A stretch of DNA of 20,000 nt from Malassezia furfur (taxonomy: Eukaryota). The notes below the pieces were generated by a model. It saw only the letters and a list, made by a program, of their open reading frames with translations. It was not told where the DNA came from and ran no database searches. Both the position numbers and the translations under genes were made by a program. Shown here in pieces: positions 994 to 17,934 of the stretch. The stretch is taken from the NCBI GenBank assembly GCA_052055015.1, contig JBQJIT010000017.1; one strand, written 5' to 3'. Every line of letters starts with the position of its first letter. The first letter of the stretch is position 1.

Positions 994-1588
994 CTTTGTT
1001 CTTGCCCTTGTCTGCGGGCCGGTCGTCGGCACTGGCGAGAGCCCCGGCGCTCGCTGCGACGTCTTCGACGCCACCGATGCGCCGGGCCTCAGTGACCATC
1101 TTGTCCGCGTACAGTAGCTGTTCCAAGCGCCCGAGCTTTTTGCGGTCGTGCCGCAATGCGTGCTTGATGTCGTCGAGCTTGGCACGCTGCCGATGCGTCT
1201 GGAGCGCGGGCGCATGGCCACGCAGTGAGGTGCTGGGTGTCTCGCCCTGCTCGATCGCACTTGCGGCCGCCTGCGACGTCGTGAGCCCGAGCGTGTACAC
1301 GGACGGCTCCGCGCGCAGGCACAGGTCGGTAAGGAAGTCGATCGTCATTTCCTCGAGCACTGCGATGGAGTCGGGCGACGGGTTCGGCGCGTCGCCGTAC
1401 GCGTACATGAGGAGGCGCAGGTCCTTGGCGAAGAGCCCCGGGTTGTTGAACGGGCGGCGACCGCGCGCCGCGAGGTCCGCGCGGTACGACGCGGGTGCGT
1501 GCTCACTAGCGTCGGCGTGCGCGCGCGCCTCGGCGTCGTACGGCGTCGCGCGTCCGCCGGTGTACCGCAGCGGGGTGGTCGGCGGCAT
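986..1588 (-). CDS. TAF13: TFIID subunit 13 (TFIID-18kDa histone-fold family)
   Basis: Motifs GLFAKDLRLLMYAYGDAPNP..SIAVLEEMTIDFLTDLC and KLDDIKHALRHDRKKLGRLEQLL are typical of TAF13. Confidence 0.9.
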   Translation of the reverse strand: MPPTTPLRYTGGRATPYDAEARAHADASEHAPASYRADLAARGRRPFNNPGLFAKDLRLLMYAYGDAPNPSPDSIAVLEEMTIDFLTDLCLRAEPSVYTLGLTTSQAAASAIEQGETPSTSLRGHAPALQTHRQRAKLDDIKHALRHDRKKLGRLEQLLYADKMVTEARRIGGVEDVAASAGALASADDRPADKGKNKAT

Positions 1589-1595
1589 CAGAGAT

Positions 1596-1634: not shown

Positions 1635-3227
1635 ATGCCACCGCGCTTTGGGTTCGTGCGTCTGTCCTCTGTGTTTCGCCGAGGCCTACCCCCCGTGACT
1701 CCGAGCATCCGCCCAGCTTTTCGACTGGGTCAAGTGTCTGCGCATCTCGCCGCGTCTATTCACACAAGTGCACCCGCGAATATGCCCCCTGTCCAGCCCC
1801 CCAGCGAAGCGCACTACGATCTGATCGTCCTTGGCGGCGGGTCCGGCGGCATGGGCGCCAGCCGCCGTGCTGCGTCGTACGGCAAGAAGGTCGTGGTGAT
1901 CGAAGAATCGGGCGTGCTTGGCGGTACGTGCGTCAACGTCGGGTGTGTGCCCAAGAAGATCATGTGGCATGCCGCCGATCTGCAGGAGCACCTTAAGGAG
2001 GCGCACGAGTACGGCTTCGAGGATGCAGGCAAGTCGTTCAGCGTGCCGAGCGTCAACTGGACGACGCTGGCTGAAAAGCGCGACGCGTACGTGCGCCGCC
2101 TGAACGGCATCTATGACCGCAATCTTGAGAAGGACCACGTCGACTACATCTCGGGCCACGGCCGCCTGATGGGCAACGGCCGCGTGCGTGTGTCGCCCTC
2201 GCCGCACGGCGAGCTGAAGCAGGAGGTGAACATCTCGGCTGATCACATTGTGATCGCGACCGGTGGCCGTCCCAACGTGCCGAGCGACGAGAAGATCCCC
2301 GGCGCAAGCCTCGGCATCGACTCGGACGGCTTCTTTGCGCTGCGTGAGCAGCCGAAGCGCGTGCTCCTCGTTGGTGCGGGCTACATTGCCGTGGAGCTGG
2401 CGGGCATGTTCAACTCGCTCGGCTCCGAGACGCACCTCGCTATCCGCCACGATACGGTGCTGCGCAACTTTGACCCGATGATCGGTGAAACGGTCACCGA
2501 CGTGATGCAAAACATGGGCATCGACGTCCTGAAGCAGACCAACGTGACCAAGGTCGAGGGCGAAAAGGGCAAGACGCTCACCGTCCACCTCGACTCGGGC
2601 AAGACGCTCGAGGTCGACGCGCTCGTTTGGGCGATCGGCCGCCACGCCAACACGCACGACCTTGGCCTCGAGACGCTTGGCGTGAAGACGGACGCAAAGG
2701 GCAACATCGAGGTGGACAAGTACCAAAACACCAACGTCGACAAGGTGTACGCCGTCGGCGACATCGGCGGCAAGGTCGAGCTGACGCCCGTCGCGATCGC
2801 CGCCGGCCGCCGCCTGTCGAACCGCCTGTTTGGCCCCGCCAAATTCAAGGATGACCATCTCGACTACAACAACGTCGCTTCGGCCGTCTTCTCGCACCCG
2901 CCCGCAGGCTCGGTTGGTCTGAGCGAGCCCGCGGCCCGCAAGCAGTACGCGGGCGAAAAGATCACAATCTACCGCACGCGCTTCACGCCGATGTACTACG
3001 GACTGCTCTCGCACAAGATGCCCGCTGCATACAAGATTGTGTGCGTCGGCGAGGAGCAAAAGGTCGTCGGTGTGCACATGGTCGGCATGAGCTCTGACGA
3101 AGTGATCCAGGCCGTTGCGATCGCCGTCAAGATGGGCGCGACCAAGCAAGACTTTGACGACACCGTCGCCGTCCACCCGACGTGCGCAGAAGAGCTCGTG
3201 ACCACCTACACGCCGGTCCAGGAGTAG
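1635..3227 (+). CDS. GLR1: Glutathione reductase; upstream ATG 1635 adds a putative mitochondrial presequence, second in-frame ATG at 1782
   Basis: FAD-binding GGGSGG, redox-active GGTCVNVGCVPKK, NADPH-binding GAGYIAVE and C-terminal VAVHPTCAEE. The part of the 534..3227 ORF upstream of 1635 overlaps RPAP1 and TAF13 and is not treated as coding. Confidence 0.95.
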   Translation: MPPRFGFVRLSSVFRRGLPPVTPSIRPAFRLGQVSAHLAASIHTSAPANMPPVQPPSEAHYDLIVLGGGSGGMGASRRAASYGKKVVVIEESGVLGGTCVNVGCVPKKIMWHAADLQEHLKEAHEYGFEDAGKSFSVPSVNWTTLAEKRDAYVRRLNGIYDRNLEKDHVDYISGHGRLMGNGRVRVSPSPHGELKQEVNISADHIVIATGGRPNVPSDEKIPGASLGIDSDGFFALREQPKRVLLVGAGYIAVELAGMFNSLGSETHLAIRHDTVLRNFDPMIGETVTDVMQNMGIDVLKQTNVTKVEGEKGKTLTVHLDSGKTLEVDALVWAIGRHANTHDLGLETLGVKTDAKGNIEVDKYQNTNVDKVYAVGDIGGKVELTPVAIAAGRRLSNRLFGPAKFKDDHLDYNNVASAVFSHPPAGSVGLSEPAARKQYAGEKITIYRTRFTPMYYGLLSHKMPAAYKIVCVGEEQKVVGVHMVGMSSDEVIQAVAIAVKMGATKQDFDDTVAVHPTCAEELVTTYTPVQE

Positions 3228-4211
3228 CTAGTATTTTGCCGTAGGCGCCGCGTTGTGCGCTACCGCCGTCTCAAGAAATTGGCGGATCGCCGCCCAGTAT
3301 GTGCCGGGCGCATGCCGCGCAATCGCGCAATGCTTCGGCGTGGCCCACCGGCAGAGCTGCACAGTGTCTTCCGTGAGGCGCACCTCCTCGGGCGCCAGCT
3401 TTTCCAGGTCGTGCACACGCACCGGCACATGGCGCATCGTGTCCTGCGCCTCTTGTGCATGCGCAATCACCGCACCCGGGTCAATGAATGCGTCCGCCTC
3501 GGTAAACGTATACAGCCGTGCAGGCAGCTGCGCCGGCCGCTCGCCCCACGCCCAGCTCGCGACGTCATTCACCTGGTGCTTGGCGATATCGAGGGGATTG
3601 TCCCGCCGGAGAAGCCACGCATATGCATTCATCCCATCAAACACAGCACGCGTTGAGTTGCGCATCATCCAGTGCTGGAATTGGCCCAGGTACGAGCTGC
3701 CGGGTGCCATCGGCGCCATGGCCTTGGCAAACAGCTTACCGTCCAGTAAGCCAGGCGAGCAGTCCATGATATAGGCGAGCGGACGGGGGAGTCGTTCGGG
3801 TGCACGGCACCCGTACTCAAGCAGCGATGTGAACGGCATCAGCCCCCCGTTCGAGAAGCTGTGGAACGCCACCGTCGGGCGAACGTCGGGCGATGCGGCA
3901 TGGGCACGGTCGTGGGCTTCGCGGAGCAATTCCAACGCCGCAAGCGTGTCTTGTTCGCCGCCTGGTGGTGTCGTCATAAAAGCGCTCTTCGTCGTGCTCA
4001 ACTGCACCAGCACAGTCGCGTGAGGATACAGATCCATGTACGGCTGCACGTACTTGGATACATACTTCAGCTCGGCGTCCATCCAGCCGTACACAAAGAC
4101 TGCACATGGAGCATACGCCGACTTGGCCTTCTGAACGGCCGGCCGAGCCGCATACAGTGCAGTACCGACCTGTTGCAGCGCGGGCGCCATCGTACGTAGC
4201 GTCGTCCACAT
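3228..4211 (-). CDS. DUF829/TMEM53-like alpha/beta-hydrolase-fold protein (start at ATG 4211 or 4190)
   Basis: Family motifs VYGWMDA..KYVSKY, FHSFSNGG, IMDCSPG, LYTFTEADAFID and a late His (PKHCAI). Confidence 0.8.
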   Translation of the reverse strand: MWTTLRTMAPALQQVGTALYAARPAVQKAKSAYAPCAVFVYGWMDAELKYVSKYVQPYMDLYPHATVLVQLSTTKSAFMTTPPGGEQDTLAALELLREAHDRAHAASPDVRPTVAFHSFSNGGLMPFTSLLEYGCRAPERLPRPLAYIMDCSPGLLDGKLFAKAMAPMAPGSSYLGQFQHWMMRNSTRAVFDGMNAYAWLLRRDNPLDIAKHQVNDVASWAWGERPAQLPARLYTFTEADAFIDPGAVIAHAQEAQDTMRHVPVRVHDLEKLAPEEVRLTEDTVQLCRWATPKHCAIARHAPGTYWAAIRQFLETAVAHNAAPTAKY

Positions 4212-4259: not shown

Positions 4260-5573
4260 TTAGGGGTACGGCGCAAAGCGCTTCTTGGGGCCGGTGGACC
4301 GTGCACGGCCAGTCGACGCACCGGCGCCCGGCACGTCTGCGGAAGAGGATGGCGCCATGGCACCGGGCGGCGGAACAGCTTGCTGTGGGACGCTACCGTC
4401 GAGCGCCCATGCCAGAATGCAGCCGTCCTCGCCACCAGTGTAAAGACGCTGCGTACCGGCGTCCCACGCGACGCTGCGTACAATGTCGCTGTGCGCTGTT
4501 GCGCATGTCTGCGCACTGGGCAGTCGGGCATGCATGGACCACTCGGTATGCATTCCCGCAGCATCCACGTCAAAGCTTAGGAGCGCCGCGCCACCATCTT
4601 GGTCGCCGGTCATAAGGGGCACACGCACGCCGTTGGCGGGCGGGAGCATCGGCAGTAAGGTGCCCGCATCCACGACGTAGTCACTCACCCATGGTGGTGC
4701 ATAGCTCGTAGGTGTACGTACAGGCACCTCTGCAACAATTGGATCGAGCTTGTCCGCGTCCCACACCCCGAGTGTCTGCATGTTGCTCACCGCATAGATG
4801 GGGCCGAGGTGCGTGCGCCGCGGATCGTTGCTGAGCACCGTGTCCTTTTCGTCCATGCCAACATCGGTCGCCTCGGTGCGCGGCGTGTACGCATACGTGC
4901 CGTGTTGTGCAAAACCGACGCGGGCGAGGCTGCTGTCCGTATTCCCGACCGAGATCACCGCATCTTCCTCGGCGGCGATAGTCGTGTCGATGGCGCTGAC
5001 AAGCCCATCCATCCCGCCACTGAGCAGCACGCCCGGGTGACGGGGGGTATCCGGATGGAAGGTGAGCGTCATAATGTCGTCCGAATGCACCTCGCTGTAG
5101 GTACAAACGGGCGCAGACGGATTCCGCAGATCCCACAGATCAATCACAGCGTCGGCGCCCTTGAGCTCTGTGCCTGCGGCAACCAGCGGTCCGGTCGCTG
5201 CGAGTGACAGGTACGGCGCGCCGCTGGGGCCTACGAGGCGCGTTGCATCGGCGTGCGCGGAGCGCGCGTCCCAGAGCGCGACGTACCCACCGAGCGACGA
5301 GCCTGCCCATGCCGTGGACGCGAAGTCGACGTTGGTAATGCCCGTGATGTTTTGGTCGGCCGGCACGCTGATCGTGCGGACGGGCGCATTGAATCGGCCC
5401 TTGTCAAAGAGGAACAGCGCCGGTGTGTCACACACAGCCAGAAGGTGTGCGGGCGACACGCTGGGCATGAGCAGGTGCGTAAAGTATGGCTTGCGTGCAT
5501 CGCTGCTCGCAAAGCGGTCGAGCGGGCGGGCAGGCGTGACGCACCCGTCGACGGCGCGCAGCGTGTCAGTCAT
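4260..5573 (-). CDS. WD40-repeat protein, WDR89/YNL035C-like
   Basis: WD repeats (ALWDAR, IDLWDLR, HSDIVRSVAWD..LYTGGEDGCILAW) and YSEVHSDDIMTLTFHP..LLSGGMDGLV. Start placed at ATG 5573 (MTDTLR). The C-terminus PKKRFAPYP resembles a PY-type NLS. Confidence 0.8.
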   Translation of the reverse strand: MTDTLRAVDGCVTPARPLDRFASSDARKPYFTHLLMPSVSPAHLLAVCDTPALFLFDKGRFNAPVRTISVPADQNITGITNVDFASTAWAGSSLGGYVALWDARSAHADATRLVGPSGAPYLSLAATGPLVAAGTELKGADAVIDLWDLRNPSAPVCTYSEVHSDDIMTLTFHPDTPRHPGVLLSGGMDGLVSAIDTTIAAEEDAVISVGNTDSSLARVGFAQHGTYAYTPRTEATDVGMDEKDTVLSNDPRRTHLGPIYAVSNMQTLGVWDADKLDPIVAEVPVRTPTSYAPPWVSDYVVDAGTLLPMLPPANGVRVPLMTGDQDGGAALLSFDVDAAGMHTEWSMHARLPSAQTCATAHSDIVRSVAWDAGTQRLYTGGEDGCILAWALDGSVPQQAVPPPGAMAPSSSADVPGAGASTGRARSTGPKKRFAPYP

Positions 5574-5641
5574 CGGCGCACCGAAAAAAAAAGCGCGGCG
5601 TCGTCGGCAGGTGGAGGCCCTCCCCCGGCTTCCCCGGAACC

Positions 5642-6467
5642 ATGCTCGGTACGTGCCTGAAGCTAATGAAGTGATTGGATTGACAGGTGGCATTGCGTCG
5701 GGCAAGTCGACGGCTTCGCGGCTGCTACGTACTCACAAGATCCCCGTAGTGGATTTGGACGAGATTGCCGTCGAGGTCGTCAAGCCCGGCACGCCGACGC
5801 TGCGCCGGCTGGTCGAGACGTTTGGCACCGACATCCTCAACGAAGACAAGTCGCTGAACCGCGGTGAGCTCGGCCGCCGTGCGTTCGGCGACAAGGAAAA
5901 GACGAAACTACTGAACAAGATCACGCATGGCGCAATCCGCCGCGTGATGCTCTTCCGCCTGATCAAGCTCTGGCTGACGGGCGCACGGTGTGCCGTGGTG
6001 GACACGCCGCTGTTGATCGAGGCGGGATTGTACAAGTGGTGTGCGCTAACCGTGCTGGTGTGGTGGTACGTGTGTCATGGGGCTAACGCAGTACGGAAGA
6101 ACAGCAACTGGAGCGCATGCTCAAGCGCGACGGCCCCACCAAGGGCCTGACCGAGGCCGATGCGCGCGCACGCCTCGCGTCGCAGCTGCCGCTCTCGGAG
6201 AAGCTGCGGTACGCGGACAAGGTGATCGACAACTCGACTCACTACGGGGACGGCTCGACGCCGCTGCGTGAGGAGGTCGAGGCGCTCGTCGCCAACCTGC
6301 GCTACGACCAGCACTCCGTGCCGAGCACCCTTGCATGGTTGCTCAACTGGCTGCTGCCGCCCGTCGGCCTGCTGTGGGGCCTACTGGCTGCGCTGCTGCA
6401 CGCCCGGCGCATCCAGCTGCATCACAACCAGCAGCTGTTGGCCGAGGGGAAGAAGAAAGACGAGTAG
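5642..6467 (+). CDS. CAB5: Dephospho-CoA kinase; exons 5642-5648, 5672-6065, 6092-6467 (258 aa)
   Basis: Splicing gives the N-terminus MLVIGLTGGIASGKST (P-loop), then DTPLLIE, VWCTEEQQLERMLKRD, ARARLASQLPLSEKLRYADKVIDN and a C-terminal hydrophobic helix. Confidence 0.92.
5649..5671 (+). other. Spliceosomal intron, 23 nt (CAB5 intron 1)
   Basis: GTACGT..GCTAAT.GAAG. Removal joins ATG CTC G|TG ATT GGA to give the canonical CoaE start MLVIGLTGG. Confidence 0.88.
6066..6091 (+). other. Spliceosomal intron, 26 nt (CAB5 intron 2)
   Basis: GTACGT..GCTAAC.GCAG. Removal repairs the frameshift between ORFs 5161..6150 and 6117..6467. Confidence 0.92.
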
Positions 6468-8105
6468 CTATGTAGTGGGATTATTTGCGCCCTTGGTCGT
6501 GCTGGGCGCCTTGACGCGCGTCGGGGGGATGGGCATGGAGCCGGGGAACGGCACGCGCAGGTTCCAGTTGCGCTCGAGGTGCAGTTGGATGTCCTTGACC
6601 TCGAGGCGGTCACCCTTGCGGTGCTTGGCCAGGCGACACCCGAACGACGTCACGCTTTCGATAAACTCGTCGGCAATCTCGAGCAGCAGGTCCTCGACAT
6701 CGCCCTCGAGCTGCTCGTTTGGGTCAATCTCACTGACCAGCTCCTGCACTTTGCGCTTCGTCAGCAGCCGGTTGTTGCCGCTCGCCGCACCGAGCCCAAA
6801 CTGCGCCGCGGGGCCCGGACCCAGCACATCACCCAAGTTCGCGGCAAACCCGTCGCTGTCCAGGCTCAGATTCAGGCTCTCGTCTACCGCCGCACTGTCG
6901 CCCGCGCCGATGCCCAGCAGGTCCTCCCAGTGCTGACCGCCGCGGGGGGTATGTAGCGACTTGCCGTTGCGGCCCACCGGGTTCGGGCGGACCAGCACGG
7001 GCGGCGTCCCAGTCACCGGTGGCGTGCCGAGGCCCTGCGTCAAGGTCGGGTGCGGGCCGTGCGCGTTAGGGTACGGCTGCGGCGTCGAGGTATGTTGGGC
7101 GATCAGGTTCGCAAGCGCACCCGTCGACGATTGGGGCGTGCCGCCGCCCGTGGGCAGCAGCGACGAGGGCTGCGCAATGCCGGTAAGCGGAGTGCTTGAC
7201 GACGCGCCACCCTGTGCATGCGAGCGCAGCGCCCCGGCCGTCTTCGACGAGGGCGTCTCAGGTGCCGCCTTGTTGCCGCCCGCGTCGGCGGCGAGCTTAC
7301 CGGCGGCCTTGGCCGTGGATTGCGGCGTGCTTGGCGCATTGCTCGGCGTGCTTGGCCCCGGCGTGTGAGCCGCTTTGCCGCCCGACGGCTGCGCCTGCAT
7401 CGGCGGCGCCTGCGGCTGCGGCGCAGGCTGCGGCGCCTGAGGCTGCGGCGCCTGCTGCGCCTGCGACGGTTGTTGCTGTTGCTGCTGCTGTTGCTGCTGT
7501 TGCTGCTGCTGCTGCTTGTGCTGCTGGAGCAGCATCTGGTACTGCTGCTGGTCCTTGGCCCGCGCCTGCTCGCGAGCCAGAGCGACCTGACGCGCCAGGC
7601 TCATTTGCTTCGTCTTTAACTCATTGTACAGGTTCTGCTGCTGTTGCTTCTCCTGCGCGGAGAGATTGGGGTTCCGCAGTGACGCCTCGAGGTGCGAGAT
7701 GTTGAGCATGAGCGGCGACATGACCTTGTTGAACTGCTCCATCAACATCGCCTCGTGCTGCGGCATCTGCGCTTGCGGCACGGCGTTCTGCATCGGCTTC
7801 GGCTGCGCGGCAAACGAGCCCTGCTGTGCCGATCCCGCGGCGTCAGGGAACGTCTGGGGCATTGGGCGCTGCTGCACGTTTGGCTGGGTGGCCGCGCGCT
7901 GTTGCGACCCGAGGATCGCGCGGATCTGCTGCAGCTGCTCGGGGCTCACTTTGCCCTCGCGCGCCGCATTGACGATCGCCGTGAGCCCCTCTGGGTTGTT
8001 CGCAAGCAGCGGCTGCAGGCCCTGCATTGCGCTCGCGGGCAGGCCACCGCGGCCTGCCATGTTGGGCGGCACGCCGCCATTGCCTCCGGGGCCGTTGGAG
8101 CCCAT
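6468..8105 (-). CDS. TAF12: TFIID/SAGA subunit TAF12 with Q/P-rich N-terminal region
   Basis: C-terminal histone fold RLLTKRKVQELVSEIDPNEQLEGDVEDLLLEIADEFIESVTSFGCRLAKHRKGDRLEVKDIQLHLERNWNLRVP. Start placed at ATG 8105 (MGSNGPGG). Confidence 0.93.
   Translation of the reverse strand: MGSNGPGGNGGVPPNMAGRGGLPASAMQGLQPLLANNPEGLTAIVNAAREGKVSPEQLQQIRAILGSQQRAATQPNVQQRPMPQTFPDAAGSAQQGSFAAQPKPMQNAVPQAQMPQHEAMLMEQFNKVMSPLMLNISHLEASLRNPNLSAQEKQQQQNLYNELKTKQMSLARQVALAREQARAKDQQQYQMLLQQHKQQQQQQQQQQQQQQQPSQAQQAPQPQAPQPAPQPQAPPMQAQPSGGKAAHTPGPSTPSNAPSTPQSTAKAAGKLAADAGGNKAAPETPSSKTAGALRSHAQGGASSSTPLTGIAQPSSLLPTGGGTPQSSTGALANLIAQHTSTPQPYPNAHGPHPTLTQGLGTPPVTGTPPVLVRPNPVGRNGKSLHTPRGGQHWEDLLGIGAGDSAAVDESLNLSLDSDGFAANLGDVLGPGPAAQFGLGAASGNNRLLTKRKVQELVSEIDPNEQLEGDVEDLLLEIADEFIESVTSFGCRLAKHRKGDRLEVKDIQLHLERNWNLRVPFPGSMPIPPTRVKAPSTTKGANNPTT
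7470..7514 (-). repeat. CAG/CAA trinucleotide repeat encoding Q15 in TAF12
   Basis: 15 consecutive Gln codons, seen on the plus strand as a (CTG/TTG)n run. Confidence 0.95.
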
Positions 8106-8126
8106 CGTGGTCGTGGCAATGAAAAG

Positions 8127-8132
8127 CACGTG
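8127..8132. promoter_or_regulatory. CACGTG E-box in the 56-bp divergent TAF12/MTQ2 gap
   Basis: GCACGTGAC. Confidence 0.55.
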
Positions 8133-8161
8133 ACACCCGCGTCGCGTCGCGCACGGCCAGC

Positions 8162-8856
8162 ATGCTGCCGACGCCGGACATCGCGCATGTGCGCCGCACG
8201 TACGGCGACGAGGTGTACGATCCGGCGGAGGACACATTTGCGCTCATGGATGCACTGGAGCAGGATGCACCGGGGCTTCAGAACACGTCGCTGTGCGTCG
8301 AAATCGGCAGTGGCAGTGGGTGCGTGTCGACGTTCGTAGCGCAGCTCGTGGGACCGCACGCCGCGTACGTGTGCACCGATATCAACCCGGCAGCTACGCT
8401 GTGCACACGCGAGACGGCGGAGCGCAACCATGTGGCGCTTGACGTTGTACGTGCGTCGACTCTCGACGGCCTGCGGCTTACAGGGCTCGTAGATCTGTTG
8501 CTGTTCAATCCACCGTACGTCGTCACCAGCGACGAGGAAGAGGCCGCGGCGCAGGCGCATGCAGCTCTTGCCGGCGCGTGGGCAGGCGGCACGTACGGAA
8601 CTGCGCTGCTCCAGCGCATGATCGACGATGGCGTCTTTGAGGTACGTCGTCCTCAGCTCTCACGCAGCGCACTTTGCGATCTGGCGGACGCCTGTATGTG
8701 GTGACGATCAAGCAAAACGACCCAGAGGAGCTCGTGCGCCAGCTCGCCGCGCACGGCTTTGATGCCGACGTACGTACACTGCTCCTTACCCAGATCGTGC
8801 TGCGCCGCCGCGCAAATCGTGAATGGCTACATATCCTACGTGCAATCAAGTCTTAA
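8162..8856 (+). CDS. MTQ2: eRF1 glutamine methyltransferase catalytic subunit (Mtq2/N6AMT1/HemK2); exons 8162-8641, 8668-8769, 8794-8856 (214 aa)
   Basis: MLPTPD..VYDPAEDTFALMDALE, SAM motif VEIGSGSG, LLFNPPYV, AWAGG, GGRLYVV..N.PEE and RRRANRE. Confidence 0.92.
8642..8667 (+). other. Spliceosomal intron, 26 nt (MTQ2 intron 1)
   Basis: GTACGT..CTCAC.GCAG. Removal joins GVFE|RTLRSGGRLYVV and repairs the frameshift. Confidence 0.9.
8770..8793 (+). other. Spliceosomal intron, 24 nt, in-frame and stop-free (MTQ2 intron 2)
   Basis: GTACGT..CTTAC.CCAG. Removal gives GFDAD|IVLRRRANRE; retention would insert VRTLLLTQ. Confidence 0.75.
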
Positions 8857-10832
8857 GCCATGCGCCACAGCTTCGCACACACATCTGCTGTCGCATCCGT
8901 CTCCTCCGTCGGGAACGCGTAGTGCCGCAGCCGCTTGCGCGTCTCGCGGCGCACCGCCTGCTCGGCCGTCGCCGACTTCGTCGGCAGCATCGCAGGTACC
9001 TGCAGCGTGACGTCCAGCGGCTCGGTCGCCGGCGGCGCGCGCGGCTTCGCGCGCTCCTTGTGCTGCAACGTCTTACGCGCCTCGGTGTCAAAGAGCGTGC
9101 CGTAGGTCGTGTCGAGGAACTCCTCGAGGTTGTATTTTTGTTGCGTAAAAGGCTCCGCGAGAATGCTCGCAAACGTCGTCACCGAGCCGAGATAGTGCGT
9201 ATCGCCGCCGGCCTCCAGCGCGCGCTGCTGCTGGTTCTGGCTAAGACGGTACGCGCCAAACGCCGCAATCTCCCACAGTGAGCTCTCAAGTGCACCCGTG
9301 TGCAGCGGATTGGGCTCTTGCGCGTCAAACGGATCCTCGACACCGGTCGGACCGAGCGCCAGGTGATCGCCATCCCATTCGCGGTGGATCATCGGCATGC
9401 AGCTGGGGTGCCGGCGCAGCAAATTCCACACAAACGGCACAATCTCGACAATCGCTGCGGGCGTCGCACGCAGCGACAGCCGGCTCAGCCGCTTCAGGAA
9501 GGACGCAACGATGGCGACGGGCAGGTGTGTCGAGCTCAGGAATGTGTCGAGCATGCGCATGAAGCGCGAGCGGTATTTGGTATGCATCACCGATGCATCC
9601 AGCAGGCCATAAAGCCGCGTGTAGAACGCGGGGTAGTCGAGGTTGTGCGACACAATCAGCGTAAACAGGCCGTTGAGCGCCAGCAGCGCCGTCGTTCCGC
9701 GCGCGTCCAAGCAGTCCACGAGGAAATCGTGTAACATCGTCGGTTTGGGCAAGTGCGGCAGGATCTGGGTGTGCAGGCGCACCAGGATATCATGCGTCTC
9801 GGCAAGCGAGAGCGAGCCGCCATGGACGACCAGCGTACCGGACGCGTCGGTATGCGATGCAGGGAGCAGCAGACTCAGCCATGCGCCAGCGAATGCCTGG
9901 CGCTGCGCCGCAAGACCGTGCATCGACTCACGTAGCGTCTTGGTGCGCCGCGCACGGCGGCCCCGGCCGGCCGGCACCTCGGCTACCTCGTCGTCGTCGC
10001 TGTCGGACGCCTGAGCGAGCACCTCCTTCATGTCCTCGTCCTCGTCACTCCCCGCACCGTCCTCGCCAAATTTGGGCTTCTTTTGTGTCTTGCTCTTCTT
10101 CTTGGGCGGGGCTTTGGCGAGGTGCGGTACCAAAAAGTTGTTTAAGTGGTCGTCTTGCGTTGGGATTGCCGTGATCCGCACCAGCCACGTACGTGCGCGC
10201 GAACGGATATGCGCATGACGTGCAGATGCATCAGGGATCGCACGCAGGACGCGGATGAGTTCCCGACAAAACTCAAAGCGCACGTCGTCATAGATTTCGA
10301 GATACGACTCGGCGAACGCATCAACAACGTCGTCGGCCACCTCGCGGAAGAGCAGCGTGCGAACGAGCAGCCGGAACGGCGTAATAGACCACTTCCCAGC
10401 ATCGCAGGCCAGGGCCTCGGACGCGGCCACCTGGAGCGACATGGTGACCTCGAGTGCGGCAAGGCGCACCGACGATACCGGTGACACCAGCAACGTCTCG
10501 AGCACAAACTGTACGTACGCATTCCACTGCTCCTTCATCCAGCGCGCGACCTGCGCGCGCGGTTCATCGCTTGCCTCACCAAGCATAAGCAGGCCGACGT
10601 CCGTGACGTGTGCTACGTCTAGCGCACCAGACGCACACAACGCCACGAGACTCTGCGACAAGACGCGTACGGCGAGGGTCAGCGCCTTGAGATTGTCCTT
10701 GTCTTGTGTCTTCAATAGCTCACCATGAAGTTTCCGAGCAAGCTCCAAAAGCTCGACGATCGGATTCAGGTCCGTGGACGCGGCGAGCTGCCCCTGGATC
10801 GCCTTGACGCGCTCCAACGGTGCCGCTCCCAT
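8853..10832 (-). CDS. NOC4: Nucleolar complex protein 4 (CBF/Mak21 family, SSU processome)
   Basis: LALNGLFTLIVSHNLDYPAFYTRLYGLLD..HTKYRSRFMRMLDTFLSSTHLPVAIVASFLKRLSRLSL, NLLRRHPSC and ALESSLWE. Start at ATG 10832 (alternative in-frame ATG at 10868). Confidence 0.92.
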   Translation of the reverse strand: MGAAPLERVKAIQGQLAASTDLNPIVELLELARKLHGELLKTQDKDNLKALTLAVRVLSQSLVALCASGALDVAHVTDVGLLMLGEASDEPRAQVARWMKEQWNAYVQFVLETLLVSPVSSVRLAALEVTMSLQVAASEALACDAGKWSITPFRLLVRTLLFREVADDVVDAFAESYLEIYDDVRFEFCRELIRVLRAIPDASARHAHIRSRARTWLVRITAIPTQDDHLNNFLVPHLAKAPPKKKSKTQKKPKFGEDGAGSDEDEDMKEVLAQASDSDDDEVAEVPAGRGRRARRTKTLRESMHGLAAQRQAFAGAWLSLLLPASHTDASGTLVVHGGSLSLAETHDILVRLHTQILPHLPKPTMLHDFLVDCLDARGTTALLALNGLFTLIVSHNLDYPAFYTRLYGLLDASVMHTKYRSRFMRMLDTFLSSTHLPVAIVASFLKRLSRLSLRATPAAIVEIVPFVWNLLRRHPSCMPMIHREWDGDHLALGPTGVEDPFDAQEPNPLHTGALESSLWEIAAFGAYRLSQNQQQRALEAGGDTHYLGSVTTFASILAEPFTQQKYNLEEFLDTTYGTLFDTEARKTLQHKERAKPRAPPATEPLDVTLQVPAMLPTKSATAEQAVRRETRKRLRHYAFPTEETDATADVCAKLWRMA

Positions 10833-10889
10833 CGTGGCTGAGAAAAAAAGAGCCGCCTCCACTCCCATCTTCTTGTCGCCCTCCACACA

Positions 10890-12797
10890 ATGCACTGGCG
10901 CACCGTAGTGTGGGGTGCGCTCGTGCTCGCGTATGCTGCAGCGCGCGCGACGCTGCCAGATGCGCAATTATCCCATGAGGGTATCTATATCAACTTGCCG
11001 GCAACATCTTCGCTCAGGATATATATGGAACCTGCCGAACTCGAATTGGAAAATGCAACTGTATCAATTAGTGCGCTGCGCACGCGCTCCGCCGACCAGG
11101 TCGAACTGTGCAAGCAGGGCCAACTACGCTCGATTGAGGCGTGCAGTGCAACCGATCTCTTTACAACACATGAATTCACACCTGTGTTCACCATACAACA
11201 CGAGGATCTGCAGCCTGATCAGGGCGTGTCTTTATCCCACCTATGGGCATCGGCCAACGGCAGCCTAGCGGCGCTCGTACATCCTGAACCCCATGGGGTC
11301 TTACGCAGCGTGATAATAAAACTGCGTACGAACAGCCGACACGGAGTACGTACTCGCTTTTGGTGGCTTGGCAACCTGGTCCCCGAGCGCGGCCTGTGGC
11401 CGATCGCCGCGTCCGATGTTGCATCGCGCGACGGGCAGCCAGTCAATGGCAGTGCTTTGGATATCCCCTGGGACGGGCGTGCCGTGCGGATAAGTGGTAC
11501 GATGCAAGACCCATTTCTACCTCGCTCGCGCCAGCGGGCGTACATGCGAGACAGCTCGTGGGCCCGCGGTGTGACCATACGCACGCGCACGGGCGGAGAC
11601 CCTGTCCCGCTCTACTCGCCTACGAATGGTACTGTGGTGTGGAGCGCACCCTACGTGCATGTGCGTCCGCCCCACACAGGTGCTCATGCGGGCGAGAACA
11701 ACGAGGAGGACTGGTGCGTGATGATCCAGGATGCCTGGGGCACCGTCTTCCAGCTGTTTGGCCTCCAGCGCGGACACGCAACAGTACGAGTGGGCGAGCG
11801 GGTGCGGGCTGGCCAAAACATTGGCATTGCACATCAAACGCAGCTTAGCCAGATGCCGCCCAGCACCGAAGCGCCCGCTGACCCGCCCAAATCCTACGAA
11901 ATTCAACGGTTTTTGCCATACCCCTATCGTTTCCGCCGGCTCGAGGTGCGCGTCGGGCGCACATCATGTATCCGCCCCGGTGACGCATGTTTTGCGCCAG
12001 ACGCACCGTGGGATTACTACCCCCCGCAGTTTGTGCTCCGCAAACGCGATGAGCCGTCGGCGATCCCGCCGATGGTCGAGCCCCACCGCATCTACTTTGC
12101 GCCGGCGGCCGCCTCGCCACTCGACCACGTCCCTCTTGCGGCGCCGAAAAGTGCCCTGGCGCACCCATTGCCCTTGTCTGGGCGTGTGGATGTACTGAGT
12201 ACGCTGGTGTCGTTTGAGTCGACGCCCGGACACCTTGACGATGCGATGGACCCTCTAGCCTTGTATGCCCTTGAATGGGCCGTCGTCCCGCAAAGTGCGC
12301 AGCCAGTGTGCGAGCAAACCAATGTGTATTGGCGAAAGTCCTTTGAGCACAACCGCCTGCCGAATCCAAACAACGCCAACCTCGACGATCCCGCGTTCCT
12401 CCAGGCGCACTACGTCCCCACGGTGGTGGTTGCCAGCGTCGCCGGACACGCCTTCCGTGCGCAGATCAAGAGCCAATTTGACGAAAAGGAGCGTGCCCTG
12501 GTCTACGCGCTGAGCCGGACACGGGGCGGTAGGCCACACATTGAGGGGGCCTGGGACATTACGCGCGAGCCAACGCGCGGTGTGCACCAAGTGGCCATCC
12601 GTGCATGGGACATGAGCGGAAATGCAGTGTGCACGGAAACCACCGTTCTCCTCACCGACGTCGTGACACCGCGCCCCAACTTATGGCAGAGCCGCGAGTG
12701 GCACACGGCGGTGCTCGACTCGGCGCTACTTGGGCTGCCGCAGGCGGCAGCGACGCTATTGATGGGCGTAGCGCAGTTGCTTTGGGTCCTTTTGTAG
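10890..12797 (+). CDS. Uncharacterised secreted or surface-anchored protein with a degenerate peptidase M23/LytM-like domain
   Basis: 635-aa ORF filling the gap between NOC4 and UTP18. It has an N-terminal signal peptide (MHWRTVVWGALVLAYAAARA), an M23-like segment (PLYSPTNGTVV...VRVGERVRAGQNIG) and a hydrophobic C-terminal tail. Confidence 0.75.
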   Translation: MHWRTVVWGALVLAYAAARATLPDAQLSHEGIYINLPATSSLRIYMEPAELELENATVSISALRTRSADQVELCKQGQLRSIEACSATDLFTTHEFTPVFTIQHEDLQPDQGVSLSHLWASANGSLAALVHPEPHGVLRSVIIKLRTNSRHGVRTRFWWLGNLVPERGLWPIAASDVASRDGQPVNGSALDIPWDGRAVRISGTMQDPFLPRSRQRAYMRDSSWARGVTIRTRTGGDPVPLYSPTNGTVVWSAPYVHVRPPHTGAHAGENNEEDWCVMIQDAWGTVFQLFGLQRGHATVRVGERVRAGQNIGIAHQTQLSQMPPSTEAPADPPKSYEIQRFLPYPYRFRRLEVRVGRTSCIRPGDACFAPDAPWDYYPPQFVLRKRDEPSAIPPMVEPHRIYFAPAAASPLDHVPLAAPKSALAHPLPLSGRVDVLSTLVSFESTPGHLDDAMDPLALYALEWAVVPQSAQPVCEQTNVYWRKSFEHNRLPNPNNANLDDPAFLQAHYVPTVVVASVAGHAFRAQIKSQFDEKERALVYALSRTRGGRPHIEGAWDITREPTRGVHQVAIRAWDMSGNAVCTETTVLLTDVVTPRPNLWQSREWHTAVLDSALLGLPQAAATLLMGVAQLLWVLL

Positions 12798-14477
12798 CTA
12801 TGACACATACGAACGGAGCGCGTACAGCAGCACACGACCCCGGCTGTTGCCGATCGCCATGTACCGGCTCTCGGACGAGAAGTCGAGCGCAGTAACATGC
12901 CCGAGCGGCGTGCCCGCCGTCGGCCAGTTGGAGTAGGTCTGCAACGTGGGCACATGCACCATGCGCAAAGCGTCCTTCTTGTTGCGCGACGCAATCGCAA
13001 GCAGCTGCGCGTCGTGGCTGAATCGCATCGAGGTGATCGCCGTCGTTAGATTGCCGAGCGCGCGCCGCGACTTGAGCTGCACGTCGTCGGTGACCGGCGC
13101 AGCGACGGGAGTGTCGACAAGCCCATCAAGCGTCGCGCTCGTCGTCACGCGGTCGTCGGTGCCGCCATACACATTTACCACACCGCTAGTCGACCCCACC
13201 GCCCACGCCGACGGCACGAGCGACGACGAGGCACACTCAAGGCCCTTGGCGCCAAACAGCCCGGGATCGAATGCCGTCACGGGGCACGCGCGGTTGCGCA
13301 CATCCCACACATGCACGCGACCCTCGGTGGAGAGCGTCAGCAGCCGCGGCGTGGAGGTGGAGGGCGCCCAGGTCATGCCGGCGAGCGGCGCATTCATGCG
13401 CAGCTCGCCGATGCGCTGTCCGCCGCCGTTGGCGGTCACACCGCCGGCACCCCAGTCAACCAGATGGACTTGCCCGCGGCGCCCACCGATCGCAACGAGG
13501 CGCGCGTCCGCACCCGGCTCGAATCGCACAAAGCTCAGGTCGCGCTCGGCACCCGCATCGACTTCCGTGCCACCAGCACTCGACACCACCTTACCTGCGC
13601 CACGCCATGGCGATGAGCGAATGGTCTTACCGGAACGAATGTCGTATGCGTACAGGTACGGGCGGTTGCCGGCGATCAGCACCGAGTGACCAGAGGGGTG
13701 GAACTGTGCTGTCTTAATTGGCAAATCGGGCACATGCAGTGTCTCAAGTAGCGGATTGGTGCTCCCGTTGATTTGGAACAGGCGCACACGCCGATCGCGC
13801 GAGGCTGTAAGAAGGACATGCGAGCGTGCGCTAGGGTGGAATGCAATGTGTTCGATTGCCGCAGGCTCCTCGGCACGTTCCTGCGCCTCGTTTGCGTCAC
13901 GCAGGCGCTCCACGTCAAGACGGTCGGGCGTCAAACGTCGGGTCACGCCGCGGCTCACGAGGCCCGACTCGGCACTGAGCAGGTCACTGAGCAGGGGCGC
14001 ACTCCATGCGCTGCTCTCGCCCATGCTGGGAGCCACAGATGCCCAGGCCGGCCGCGGATGCATGCGCTCGTACTGCCGGCGCAAACGCCGCTGGTACTCG
14101 GCACCGCTGATCACCTGCTCACTAGGGTTGGTGCGCAGTTTACGAAGTTTTTTGACGCCGCGCATACTGCCGTCGGGTGCGCGCGCACCAGCACCCGCAA
14201 GCGGCACCATGATCTGCTCATCGTCCGCGTCAGTCCATGCGGCATGTGGTTGGTCAGATGTGGCTGTCGCCGCGGGTGCGTCGGTGCTTCCGGGGACGTC
14301 AACGTCGACGTCGAGCGCAAACAGCTGCCGGTGAGTGGGCGGGAGACGTACGTCTTGGTCCTGGGCCTCCTGTAGGGTATCCTCGTCTTCACGCTTCCGC
14401 GTGACGCCGGCGCCGCCAAACAGGCGCTGCGCCAAGCGCTGCTCTTCGGTGCGCTCTGCGCCGTGCGCGTCTCCCAT
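12798..14477 (-). CDS. UTP18: U3 snoRNA-associated protein 18 (WD40); exons 14477-14352, 14324-12798 (550 aa)
   Basis: AAWTDADDE, LRKLR..EQVISGAEYQRRLRRQYERMHPRPAWA, LGNLTTAITSMRFSHDAQLLAIAS..KDALRMVHVP..YSNWPTAGTPLGHV. Confidence 0.93.
   Translation of the reverse strand: MGDAHGAERTEEQRLAQRLFGGAGVTRKREDEDTLQEAQDQDVRLPPTHRQLFALDVDVDVPGSTDAPAATATSDQPHAAWTDADDEQIMVPLAGAGARAPDGSMRGVKKLRKLRTNPSEQVISGAEYQRRLRRQYERMHPRPAWASVAPSMGESSAWSAPLLSDLLSAESGLVSRGVTRRLTPDRLDVERLRDANEAQERAEEPAAIEHIAFHPSARSHVLLTASRDRRVRLFQINGSTNPLLETLHVPDLPIKTAQFHPSGHSVLIAGNRPYLYAYDIRSGKTIRSSPWRGAGKVVSSAGGTEVDAGAERDLSFVRFEPGADARLVAIGGRRGQVHLVDWGAGGVTANGGGQRIGELRMNAPLAGMTWAPSTSTPRLLTLSTEGRVHVWDVRNRACPVTAFDPGLFGAKGLECASSSLVPSAWAVGSTSGVVNVYGGTDDRVTTSATLDGLVDTPVAAPVTDDVQLKSRRALGNLTTAITSMRFSHDAQLLAIASRNKKDALRMVHVPTLQTYSNWPTAGTPLGHVTALDFSSESRYMAIGNSRGRVLLYALRSYVS
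14325..14351 (-). other. Spliceosomal intron, 27 nt, in-frame and stop-free (UTP18)
   Basis: Minus strand reads GTACGTCTCCCGCCCACTCACCGGCAG (donor, CTCAC branch site, CAG). Removal gives DQD|LFALD. Confidence 0.78.
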
Positions 14478-14503
14478 GGCGTCGAGGGAGAACTTTTTTC
14501 CTG

Positions 14504-14509
14504 CACGTG
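14504..14509. promoter_or_regulatory. CACGTG E-box at the centre of the 58-bp divergent UTP18/HEM3 gap
   Basis: GCACGTGAC, 26 bp from each ATG. Confidence 0.55.
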
Positions 14510-14535
14510 ACGATCGATTCGAAGCTGCGACGTCG

Positions 14536-16130
14536 ATGGCGGAGATCCACGCGCAGGAGCCGCCGGCCTGCCCGGTGCCGCACGCCAGGGAGCAGCCGCT
14601 TCCGCCAGGACACCCACCCGTGCCTGATGCGGCACCCAGCTCGTTGCAGCCGCCGACGGGACCGCACTGCATTTTTTTCCGCCAGCCGGAGGACAAGCTC
14701 GACGCGCCGGAAAACGTTGCGAACGACGTGCCGGAATCGGACCCGAGCGCGGAGGCTGTCGCGGATGTCGTGCAGGATATCGTGCCTGCAGAATACCTGC
14801 TGGTGCTCGCTAGCCGCACGAGCAAGCTCGCTGTACGTCAGGCCGAGCAGGTACAGCACATGCTCGAGGTGCGCTTTGGTGCATCATCGCCGGCGTTTGC
14901 CGACCCGGTGCCCGAGGACGTGCGTGAGGAGGTCGCAGCAATCCACGAGCGTTTACGTGCGCTAGATGGCCCTGATGCGCCGCTGCGTCCATTTGCGTTC
15001 CCTGCGCGCACGATGCAGACGGGCGGAGATCTGAATCTGCGCTCACCTTTGTACGTGATCGGCGGCGAGGGCCGCGCGATCTGGACGAAGGAGCTCGAGG
15101 TTGCACTGCTAGCCGGTGGTGTGGATGCGATCGTGCACAGCTTGAAAGACGTGCCCACGACGCTGCCCACCAACCTCGAGCTCGCGGCGATTCTTGAGCG
15201 CGAAGATCCGCGCGATGCGCTCGTTGTCAAGGCTGGCCTTCCGTACGCGTCACTCGAGGAGATGCCGCCTGGTTCAGTGATTGGTACATCGTCGGTGCGC
15301 CGCGTCGCGCTGCTGCGCCGTGCTTACCCCCATTTGATGTTTAGCGATGTGGTATGTCTTGGAAGCTAACGCAGCGCGGCAATATCCACACCCGGCTCGC
15401 GAAACTCGATGCCGAAAATGGACCCTATACGGCGCTTGTGCTTGCCGCCGCAGGGCTCAAGCGTATGCAGCTCGCTACGCGTATTACCGCATACCTCACT
15501 GCACCTGTTATGCTGCACGCCGTCGGCCAAGGCTCGCTTGGTATCGAAATCCGGTCACCAAACGGTTCACCGCGTGATGCGCGCGTCAAGGCGCTCATCG
15601 CGAGCATCGCCGACTGGCGCGCGACGTGGCGCTGCAGTGCGGAGCGGGCACTGCTGCACCGCATGGAGGGAGGTTGCTCCATTCCGCTCGGCGTTGCATC
15701 GTGGTTTGACGACCACCACGAGGTCGAAGTGACGCGTAACGAGCCGCTGGCCACGCCCGCACAGCTCGCGGCCGAAGGCAAGCCCGTCAGTGCGCCGGTC
15801 GATCTGCGTTTCTCGACGCCGCCGCCAGACGGCCAGGTGCTGACGCTGCGTGCGGTGATCGTGTCGTTGGACGGCACGCGCAGCTGTGAGTACGAGGCAT
15901 CAGCGCTGTGCAAGTCGGTGGACGATGCCGTGGCGCTAGGGATACAGGTTGCCGACGACCTTGAGCACCGCCAGGGTGCTCGTGAGATTCTTGAGGAGGT
16001 CGAGCACCACCGCCGCCTCGCCGAGCAGGCGGACGAGGCGCAGCGGCAAAAGCAGCAAGTACCCGCACAGGAGCAGGACCGGCGGTTTGTGCCGCGCACG
16101 GACGGACAGCCCAAGGTATGGGAAGTGTAG
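14536..16130 (+). CDS. HEM3: Porphobilinogen deaminase (hydroxymethylbilane synthase); exons 14536-15351, 15375-16130 (523 aa)
   Basis: LASRTSKLAVRQA, WTKELEVALL..DAIVHSLKDVPT, REDPRDALV, IGTSSVRR, DV|RGNIHTRLAKLD, AVGQGSLGIE and the cofactor-binding Cys in EGGCSIP. Confidence 0.95.
15352..15374 (+). other. Spliceosomal intron, 23 nt (HEM3)
   Basis: GTATGTCTTGGAAGCTAACGCAG. Removal restores the conserved FSDV|RGNIHTRL. Confidence 0.93.
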
Positions 16131-16136
16131 TAGTCA

Positions 16137-17934
16137 TTACGCGTCTACGTGGAAATAGATCACCTCGGCGAGCAGCACACCGAGACCCGCGGCCGCTGAA
16201 GGCACCAGCGTCACGATACACCACACGAAAAGGACACCGGGGCGCACAATGATGCTGTGGTGTGCGAGCGAGTCGCGCCAAAGCAGGCCGGCCAGGCTAG
16301 CGGCAAACGTGCCACCGAGCGCGCCGAGGTTCGATCCGAACGCCACGGCGTACATCCCCGCCTTGGTCAGCAGGGCCCGTTGAGCAGGTGCAAAGGCATC
16401 GAGGAAGGCAGCGTCCTGCATCACGCGCGTCAGCAAGATCGTAGCGCCGATGTTGGTGCCGCCGAACTGGGACAGTTAATCGACGTACGTTACATAGTAC
16501 CATGCTCAGAAAGGCAAGAAAGAAGGTGGTTGCTGCGACGCCATGCGCACACACCTTGACGACGCCTGCGGCCATGATCGTGACGAAACCGGCATGCGCA
16601 AGGCCCTGGACCAAGATAAACATCCCGAAGGCAAACGGCACGAGCGCCAGTGGAAAGCGGCGCAGCGTAGCGGTAGTCGACGGGAAGATGCGCAAGAGGC
16701 GGCGCACAATGCCCTGTTTGGGCACAGCCGGCACTGTGCTCCGGCGGTAGGCGTGCAGGTCCGCCGCGACGTCGCGCGCAAAGCAGAGCACCGCGCCTGG
16801 GATACCAATCTGGTACACCTCGATGCCGCCGCCCACGCTTGTGCCAATCAGCGCCGCGAGTACGGCGATCAAAGCGATGGAGCTGAACACTGCACCGAAC
16901 GGGTCAGTGAGCAGCATACGCGGCTCGATCTCGGGTGAGTGAATGTGCTGGGGGATGAAGACGTAAGTGTGGGCTTCGTTGGTGGGCAGGCCGTTGAGAC
17001 GTGCCGCCAGCATGCTGGTCCGTGCGCCTACTCCTGAGCCGGTCCGCACACGCAGCGTGCGGAAGTAGAGCAAGAGCACAGCGAGCGCCGCGAGCGCCGC
17101 GGCAAACGAGGGGAGCACCATGTACGCGGTGTAGGTGACAAATGACACGTCGAATCCCGTTGCAATGACCAGGTTGGTGACATTGGACGAAACGAGCACG
17201 GCCGAGGCGATGTTGGCCGCGACAAACTGCGCCCAGACCCACGCACTTGGCGGCGTAATGCCTGCGACGCGAGTCACGTATACGAGGAATGCGGTGCCGC
17301 TCAGGATCACGGCGTCGTTGCCGAGTACGACGCCCGCGAGCCACAAAAAGAGGTACAGCATAATGTACAGCATGCGCCCATTGAATGCAGCGCAGCGACA
17401 CACATGACATGCGAGGTAGCGCAGCAGGCCGCTCGTATCGAGCGACAGTGCAATGTAGCTGAGGCTGAGGAACAGCGCAATCACATCGTATGGGAGCACA
17501 CCGCCGTCCCCGGCGATGCCCGCGCGCACCTCGGCGCCACCGATGCACGTACCCATGAGCAGCACAAGCACGCCCAGCACCGGGGCCGTCGTGTGCGTGA
17601 GTGGCAGCCAGACGCGTGCAGGGGCACCGGGCGCGGAGGGTGAAGCGGACGCCCCGTCGGACGCGACTGTGGGCGTCGTGTCTGTCGATGGTTCAGCAAC
17701 CTCATCAAGCTCTACCGGAGGCTCGCCGAGCTGCGGCGCGCCGTGGCTCCGCTCGTCGGGGCCCGGCAAGTCGAGCCACGTGCGGAGACGGTCCTGGGCA
17801 CGGCGAAGGCAGGCCGAGACAAGGAGCGGCAGTGGGACATACACGGGCACAATACACAGGAATGACACAATGGCAAACACGACCACAAGCACGATGTCCC
17901 GCGCGTCGAGCGCGGCGCTCGGTGGCGTGGGCAT
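16137..17934 (-). CDS. ArsB/NhaD-superfamily (arsenical pump/citrate transporter-like) membrane protein; exons 17934-16489, 16466-16137 (591 aa)
   Basis: Many transmembrane helices; motifs PYDVIALFLSLSYIALSLDTSGLLRYLA, GNDAVILSGTAFL, ANIASAVLVSSNVTNLV, LCN|FGGTNIGATILL and GSNLGALGGTFAASLAGLLW. Confidence 0.85.
16467..16488 (-). other. Spliceosomal intron, 22 nt (ArsB-like gene)
   Basis: Minus strand reads GTACGTCGATTAACTGTCCCAG. Removal joins ORFs 16297..17934 and 16137..16436 in frame. Confidence 0.9.

Follow-up and report, generated by a model that had tools for sequence, protein, structure and literature searches.

Seven introns of 22–27 nucleotides in a 20-kb stretch of the Malassezia furfur genome are probably ordinary, very short spliceosomal introns

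Introduction

A stretch of 20,000 nucleotides (nt) from the yeast Malassezia furfur (assembly GCA_052055015.1, contig JBQJIT010000017.1; this whole stretch is called the window below) contains seven intron-like elements of only 22–27 nt, spread over five protein-coding genes. The question raised by this locus is whether such elements are introns that an ordinary spliceosome can remove, or whether their size calls for another explanation. An earlier note, made from the letters of this DNA alone, had described all seven as introns, had pointed to their compact splice signals, and had proposed that the spliceosome of this organism may be modified. Here, we compared the elements with protein profiles, with homologous proteins and with the published introns of other organisms. 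The seven elements are very probably ordinary U2-type (GT-AG) spliceosomal introns of M. furfur, extremely short as a trait of the genus as a whole. Their excision from RNA, the use of a standard spliceosome and the position of the branch nucleotide are what we infer from the sequence.

Seven introns share one compact set of splice signals

The coordinates and lengths of the seven introns (Table 1) all match the window sequence as the earlier note had given them, on the strands that it implied, and the signals that it had listed (GTAYGT donor, branch-like site, CAG or AAG acceptor, no polypyrimidine tract) were found in every one of them. Every one of them is on the sense strand of its gene; the five genes encode CoaE, Mtq2, UTP18, HemC and an ArsB/CitMHS-type permease. 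Each intron begins with GT and ends with AG. The donor hexamer is GTACGT in six cases and GTATGT in the seventh (GTRNGT class), the acceptor is CAG in six and AAG in one, and there is one YTNAY motif per intron. If the branch adenosine is assigned by this motif, it lies 12–20 nt from the 5' end across the seven introns, while its distance from the 3' end is 5, 5, 5, 5, 7, 5 and 9 nt in introns 1–7, respectively. As these last distances are only 5–9 nt, no space is left for a polypyrimidine tract. The shortest, the 22-nt intron 7, has exactly 3 nt between its donor hexamer and TTAAC, just as had been claimed. The content of guanine plus cytosine (G+C) of the seven introns ranges from 48 to 70%.

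Table 1. Positions of the seven introns and of the five genes that contain them (coordinates are those of the window)
Feature	Gene	Coordinates	Strand	Length or exons	Splice signals, protein family or other details
Intron 1	CoaE	5649-5671	+	23 nt	GTACGT...CTAAT..AAG; full sequence GTACGTGCCTGAAGCTAATGAAG
Intron 2	CoaE	6066-6091	+	26 nt	GTACGT...CTAAC GCAG
Intron 3	Mtq2	8642-8667	+	26 nt	GTACGT...CTCAC GCAG
Intron 4	Mtq2	8770-8793	+	24 nt	GTACGT...CTTAC CCAG; in-frame, stop-free
Intron 5	UTP18	14325-14351	-	27 nt	GTACGT...CTCAC CGGCAG; in-frame, stop-free
Intron 6	HemC	15352-15374	+	23 nt	GTATGT...CTAAC GCAG
Intron 7	permease	16467-16488	-	22 nt	GTACGT CGA TTAAC TGTCCCAG
Dephospho-CoA kinase gene	CoaE/CAB5-like	5642-6467	+	5642-5648, 5672-6065, 6092-6467	
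eRF1 glutamine methyltransferase	Mtq2/N6AMT1-type	8162-8856	+	8162-8641, 8668-8769, 8794-8856	Pfam MTS
U3 small nucleolar ribonucleoprotein (snoRNP) WD40 protein	UTP18	12798-14477	-	14352-14477, 12798-14324	ATG at 14477
Hydroxymethylbilane synthase	HemC/HEM3	14536-16130	+	14536-15351, 15375-16130	Pfam Porphobil_deam, Porphobil_deamC
Membrane permease	ArsB/CitMHS-type	16137-17934	-	16489-17934, 16137-16466	Pfam CitMHS and ArsB on both exons

The lengths of five introns (23, 26, 26, 23 and 22 nt) are not multiples of three, and their removal restores the reading frame, so the frame repair that the earlier note had ascribed to five introns was recovered. The remaining two (24 and 27 nt) are multiples of three and free of stop codons. 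Work on Paramecium has reportedly led to a surveillance model, in which introns of this last kind are in deficit, and seven introns are far too few for a test of such a deficit.

The full pattern described by the earlier note was then taken as a motif (up to 30 nt, both strands). It has seven matches in the window, and these are precisely the seven introns. In 300 dinucleotide-preserving shuffles of the window the mean number of matches was 0.10 and the maximum was 2, and none of the 300 reached seven. This is a lenient test, because the pattern was derived from the same seven introns, but the excess is nonetheless very large; the elements do not occur at random. A relaxed scan (GTRNGY donor, YTNAY, [CTA]AG acceptor, candidates up to 45 nt) over the 14 genes of the window gave no further convincing intron. 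Thus, the claim that all detectable introns of this DNA measure 22–27 nt stands for the window.

Several candidates of the relaxed scan were rejected. The in-frame candidate at 3070-3102 is coding according to the continuity of the Pfam match, and those at 8451-8492 and 16890-16919, also in-frame, are coding according to alignments. The candidate at 11059-11083 (minus strand) is spurious, as it lies opposite to the coding strand of a secreted M23-like gene and upstream of the ATG of a CBF gene. Two further candidates, both in the first WD40 gene (4598-4624 and 5400-5435), possess weak donors. A separate case is the open reading frame (ORF) of TAF13 (989-1594, minus strand), which carries about 30 residues beyond the PDB TAF13 chains, between two aligned halves (residues 95–132). 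The only GT...AG candidates in this segment have non-consensus donors (GTGTAC), and the extra residues may be a loop insertion or an in-frame unspliced segment.

Removal of the introns yields proteins colinear with their homologues

Splicing out each of the seven introns gives a protein that is colinear with Pfam profiles or with orthologues (junctions are marked below by a slash). In CoaE, exon 2 covers positions 3–130 of the Pfam profile and exon 3 covers positions 133–177, while the split codon at the intron 2 junction, together with one further residue, fills positions 131–132. Intron 1 is preceded by a coding start of 7 nt, ATGCTCG. Its removal places the ATG at 5642, which is out of frame in the unspliced sequence, in frame, and the resulting MLV/IGLTGG fills profile positions 1–2. 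In PDB CoaE chains, both bacterial and eukaryotic, residue 4–5 aligns to the first residue of exon 2. By this fit to Pfam and PDB, the CoaE junction proposed in the earlier note is correct. Of the seven, intron 1 nevertheless has the least support, since no more than about 2.3 residues precede it. An alternative acceptor for this intron (AG at 5686, which would give 38 nt and keep the frame) was tried and rejected, because IGLTG would be lost, and these residues match profile positions 3–7 as well as the PDB chains.

The Mtq2 protein has its best match (96%) in the M. brasiliensis 'peptide chain release factor N(5)-glutamine methyltransferase'. When spliced, it aligns without gaps through both junctions to non-Malassezia orthologues, and when intron 3 is left in place the reading frame hits a stop. 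At the intron 3 junction, 11 of the 16 aligned homologues show no gap relative to the spliced protein. The other five have 7–8 extra residues at this site, always beginning with V, which stem from read-through of a mini-intron of their own. In the window this intron has 26 nt; its counterpart is 24 nt long in P0122 and 21 nt long in M. obtusa, M. yamatoensis and P0126; such variation between species by lengths that are not multiples of three fits non-coding sequence. To judge from the read-through peptides, orthologous introns in several species would measure 21–27 nt. The Mtq2 models of M. obtusa and M. yamatoensis translate the 21-nt in-frame orthologue of intron 3 and derail at intron 4, where the M. 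brasiliensis model derails as well, and the model of M. vespertilionis is frame-shifted.

A similar picture was obtained for the permease. Unspliced, its frame enters unrelated sequence, and the spliced form, LCN/FGGTNIGATILL, is colinear with five of ten aligned homologues (P0361, P0362, P0384, P0388 and P0474). In three others of the ten the match is lost at this very column, where they read 'LCNVS...', which is the expectation if these genes, too, have an intron there.

In HemC, the Pfam profile runs on between positions 141 and 142 exactly at the 15351/15375 junction. The spliced FSDV/RGNI is found in all four full-length Malassezia orthologues compared and also in M. brasiliensis. Both the profile and the orthologues therefore agree with the DV/RGN junction that the earlier note had read in this gene (Hem3). 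HemC also confirms that the DNA comes from M. furfur: its exon shares 98% identity with a protein named Malassezia furfur, the spliced product agrees in all aligned residues with another M. furfur protein from NCBI (see below), and consecutive neighbours were found for HemC in the accession order of M. brasiliensis. A metagenome scan with the HemC alignment returned 80 loci with 38–62% identity, none of them Malassezia-like, and these loci were left aside.

Short introns in Malassezia and in other lineages

The statement of the earlier note that Malassezia is known for short introns is borne out by the literature. In the curated annotation of M. sympodialis there are 5350 introns; their mean size is 30 bp, RNA sequencing (RNA-seq) supports 99% of them, and RNA-seq uncovered 2585 introns that prediction by homology only had missed (PMC5389616). 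In M. restricta, the mean and median intron lengths are 37.2 and 30.0 bp (PMC9241646), and its annotation was run with a BRAKER minimum intron length of 20 and an AUGUSTUS min_intron_len of 15 (PMC6473144). A review of the genus also mentions genes with 'very short introns' (PMC7426719). The introns of M. sympodialis and M. restricta are thus like those described here, in that they come from the same genus, belong to the same GT-AG class and have published lengths near 30. All seven M. furfur introns are below the published averages of these two species (mean or median of 30), and their lengths fall within the published Malassezia distribution. Moreover, spliced gene models are also present in public M. 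furfur records. Both the ultra-short introns of the genus and the difficulty that they pose to gene finders have, therefore, been described before.

Outside the genus, the length class is shared with ciliates (about 25 nt in Paramecium, 15–16 nt in Stentor), whose introns are spliceosomal and are reportedly removed by conventional components (PMC5014332, PMC13644364). However, ciliate introns are AT-rich and belong to an unrelated lineage, whereas the host here is a basidiomycete yeast, its introns are comparatively rich in G+C, and their signals are yeast-like (GUAYGU and CUAAC). Microsporidia likewise have compacted genomes of the fungal lineage and introns below about 30 nt, but very few of them, and their splicing is reportedly inefficient, with a median of about 25% (PMC13644364). 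In contrast, the average number of introns per gene exceeds one in Malassezia, and the RNA-seq support in M. sympodialis is that given above (PMC5389616). The comparison with Paramecium and microsporidia made in the earlier note holds as to length, but not as to kinship; a basidiomycete with introns of such G+C content does not belong with the ciliates.

The donor consensus of budding yeast is GUAUGU, and the near-invariant donor and CUAAC-like branch site of the introns in the window resemble the signals of Saccharomyces cerevisiae. The branch consensus of budding yeast is UACUAAC (PMC2367711). S. cerevisiae introns, which average 397 bp (PMC8476143), are long, whereas here similar signals are found within 22–27 nt.

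The Malassezia mini-introns seem to be under-noticed outside Malassezia genomics. A 2026 paper on ultra-short introns names ciliates, Microsporidia and Dicyemida as the exceptions, and a search of it for 'Malassezia' gave no occurrence (PMC13644364). In the open-access library searched, no paper turned up that deals with how Malassezia mini-introns are spliced.

Ordinary or modified spliceosome

Some of the data weigh against the view that all seven elements are ordinary, constitutive introns of the lengths given in Table 1. Two public M. furfur models dispute the donor of intron 6 and imply a length of 26 nt, not 23. Introns 4 and 5 are kept as coding in the models of close relatives (P0122, P0241 and P0242). 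Intron 1 is supported by two and a third codons plus the profile fit, and the unspliced CoaE frame has a single in-frame upstream ATG, though this ATG is located inside the antisense of the neighbouring WD40 gene. Each of these points is considered below or has been set beside the profile evidence above.

If the seven elements are ordinary U2-type introns, recognition would take place across the intron (intron definition) and would depend almost wholly on the strong GUAYGU 5' splice site and the YUNAY branch site. The acceptor would be the first AG 5–9 nt past the branch adenosine, and the lariat loops would measure only 12–20 nt. Such dimensions raise the possibility that the introns are genuine and the spliceosome that excises them is modified or reduced. 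Its early assembly would be sequential or would dispense with factors like U2AF/Mud2, since, with the branch adenosine only 12–20 nt from the 5' splice site, the U1 and U2 small nuclear ribonucleoproteins (snRNPs) could not occupy the intron together. The geometry invoked here is real, both on the donor side and on the acceptor side, where the polypyrimidine tract is missing, and in human constructs a critically short distance between donor and branchpoint reportedly constrains the space for U1/U2 assembly (PMC11291888). However, Stentor, with introns of 15–16 nt, and myxozoans, with introns below 30 nt, reportedly keep conventional U2-dependent components, U2AF1/2 included (PMC13644364), and the splice signals in the window look like textbook motifs complementary to U1/U6 and to U2. 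Because ciliates and myxozoans splice introns of comparable or shorter length with conventional components, a modified spliceosome is not required. The steric argument on U1 and U2 thus appears reasonable but not compelling, and we regard a modified machinery as unlikely.

A related idea is that the introns of M. furfur stand at the physical floor of U2-type splicing, with a near-fixed distance of 5 nt between the branch adenosine and the 3' splice site and with the branch as close as 12 nt to the 5' splice site. In such a case U1 and U2 would not bind simultaneously and the polypyrimidine/U2AF step would be bypassed. We hold this idea, too, with little confidence.

The donor of intron 6 and the public models of HemC

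The HemC gene of M. furfur is represented in public records (P0001, P0511, P0513 and P0514) by three conflicting models. In one record the gene is split at the 23-nt intron into two adjacent proteins of 288 and 221 amino acids, the first of which reads into the intron. In the second model (P0513 and P0514, 522 amino acids) the donor is placed 3 nt upstream, so that the junction becomes FSD/RGNI and a conserved valine is lost. The third is the form supported by homology, with 523 amino acids and FSDV/RGNI as in M. brasiliensis. Our spliced HemC agrees with the NCBI protein P0513 in 522 of 522 aligned residues, and the sole difference between them is one residue at the junction.

The second model amounts to the proposal that intron 6 measures 26 nt (15349-15374, with GTGGTA as donor) and not 23 nt. 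It is carried by two NCBI entries of the species itself, which are one residue shorter than the 23-nt form predicts, and the reading frame is intact in both versions. On the other hand, it is the 23-nt version that has GTATGT as donor and so fits the consensus of the other six introns. FSDV/RGNI is present in M. brasiliensis, M. yamatoensis, M. equina, M. pachydermatis and M. vespertilionis, the valine (V183) is invariant in an alignment of 12 sequences, and the Pfam profile is continuous at the junction only if this valine is present. The longer form is, accordingly, improbable in our opinion. The choice between 23 and 26 nt leaves the length class of 22–27 nt unaffected.

The in-frame introns of Mtq2 and UTP18

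Frame alone does not require the removal of introns 4 and 5, because both are in-frame and stop-free. They could be retained wholly or partly, so that the 8–9 residues they encode would appear as optional isoforms and the elements would not be constitutive introns. Retention keeps an open frame and would add VRTLLLTQ to Mtq2 (24 nt) and VRLPPTHRQ to UTP18 (27 nt). Equivalent residues are in fact present in the UTP18 annotation of M. brasiliensis (P0241), which retains the 27-nt element, and also in P0242 and P0122. UTP18 has its best match (95%) in the M. brasiliensis 'U3 snoRNP protein', and there are matches named Utp18 as well.

Yet both segments have the complete GTACGT...YTNAC..CAG signature, and they are rare among homologues. 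The 9-residue insertion is found in 2 of 17 UTP18 homologues (P0241 and P0242) and is missing in the other 15. At the intron 4 site an insertion occurs in 1 of 16 Mtq2 homologues (P0122, an ORF call), and nothing is inserted in nine of the 16, which are all those with a colinear C-terminus. Within UTP18, the segment differs at 2/9 and 5/9 residues in P0241 and P0242 and thus changes faster than its flanks (about 5%, matched region), while its first V (GT.) and last Q (CAG) are fixed. In addition, the models that keep these segments come from annotation pipelines or are plain ORF calls, and these also fail at mini-introns that break the frame. Retention of introns 4 and 5 is, in our view, a rather improbable alternative to their constitutive removal.

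The remaining explanation, that the frame breaks reflect mistakes in sequencing or assembly or mark pseudogenes and that the intron-like motifs are coincidental, can be given practically no weight, as there are seven full motif matches against an expectation of 0.10, each element lies precisely at the junction that restores colinearity, the aligned residues of spliced HemC are identical to those of a protein from an independent public annotation, and orthologous positions behave alike in several species.

Directly after intron 5, the UTP18 exon (14300-14324, minus strand) encodes LFALD. The corresponding motif LF(A/T/V/M)(L/V/F)D is present in all 17 aligned homologues. We take this motif to resemble the arch-interacting motif of Utp18 for the exosome helicase (Mtr4).

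Gene content and tight packing of the window

The window contains 14 genes, as determined from stop-to-stop ORFs and Pfam, five of which have introns. Besides these five, they are RPAP1 (cut at its 5' end), TAF13 (TFIID 18 kDa), a glutathione-reductase-type flavoprotein, DUF829, a WD40 protein, TAF12, a CBF/Mak21-family gene, a gene for a secreted protein with weak M23 similarity, and the C-terminal part of an ATR-like kinase. The secreted protein (10890-12797, plus strand; 635 amino acids) has an N-terminal hydrophobic leader, MHWRTVVWGALVLAYAAA..., and its match to Peptidase_M23 is below threshold (21 bits, with a cutoff of 28.7). An Rfam scan of the window gave no matches (no small nuclear RNA), and a scan for transfer RNA found no genes.

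The genes are packed very tightly. There are exactly three copies of the palindrome TAGCTA in the window (3225-3230, 6465-6470 and 12795-12800), with a mean of 0.84 in shuffled sequences, 11 of 200 of which reach three. Each copy provides a TAG stop to both genes of a convergent pair, namely flavoprotein/DUF829, CoaE/TAF12 and M23-like/UTP18; as one palindrome serves both stops, the convergent coding regions abut with zero spacer. The coding sequences of RPAP1 (stop at 991-993) and TAF13 (stop at 986-988) overlap by 8 nt (986-993), the stops of Mtq2 and the CBF gene overlap inside TTAA (8853-8856), and those of HemC and the permease are 6 nt apart (16128-16139). With convergent pairs as tight as these, 3' untranslated regions must extend into the coding sequence of the neighbour.

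A comparable economy is seen on the opposite side of the genes. Divergent start codons are only about 58–68 nt apart, as in WD40 (5573) and CoaE (5642), CBF (approximately 10832) and M23-like (10890), and UTP18 (14477) and HemC (14536); the intervals of these pairs are 5571-5644, 10830-10892 and 14475-14538. Such spacing leaves hardly any room for separate promoters.

Implications for Malassezia gene models

The warning of the earlier note, that gene predictors would mis-annotate these genes, proved justified. Apart from the splitting of HemC, proteins that read through or derail at the orthologous positions of the Mtq2 and UTP18 introns were found in M. brasiliensis, M. obtusa, M. yamatoensis and M. 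vespertilionis. Public Malassezia protein sets thus hold split, truncated or padded proteins at mini-introns, and anyone who compares these genes or studies their function should start from spliced models that allow introns down to about 15 nt. The seven introns also show how compact splice signals can be, with the presumed branch adenosine 5 nt from the acceptor in five of them. Should the idea of a physical floor turn out to be true, a yeast that can be transformed and is amenable to editing by clustered regularly interspaced short palindromic repeats (CRISPR) would be a model for introns shorter than the footprint of the spliceosome. For the present, the finding serves mainly as a warning to annotators, and it points to a tractable fungal system in which very short introns can be studied.

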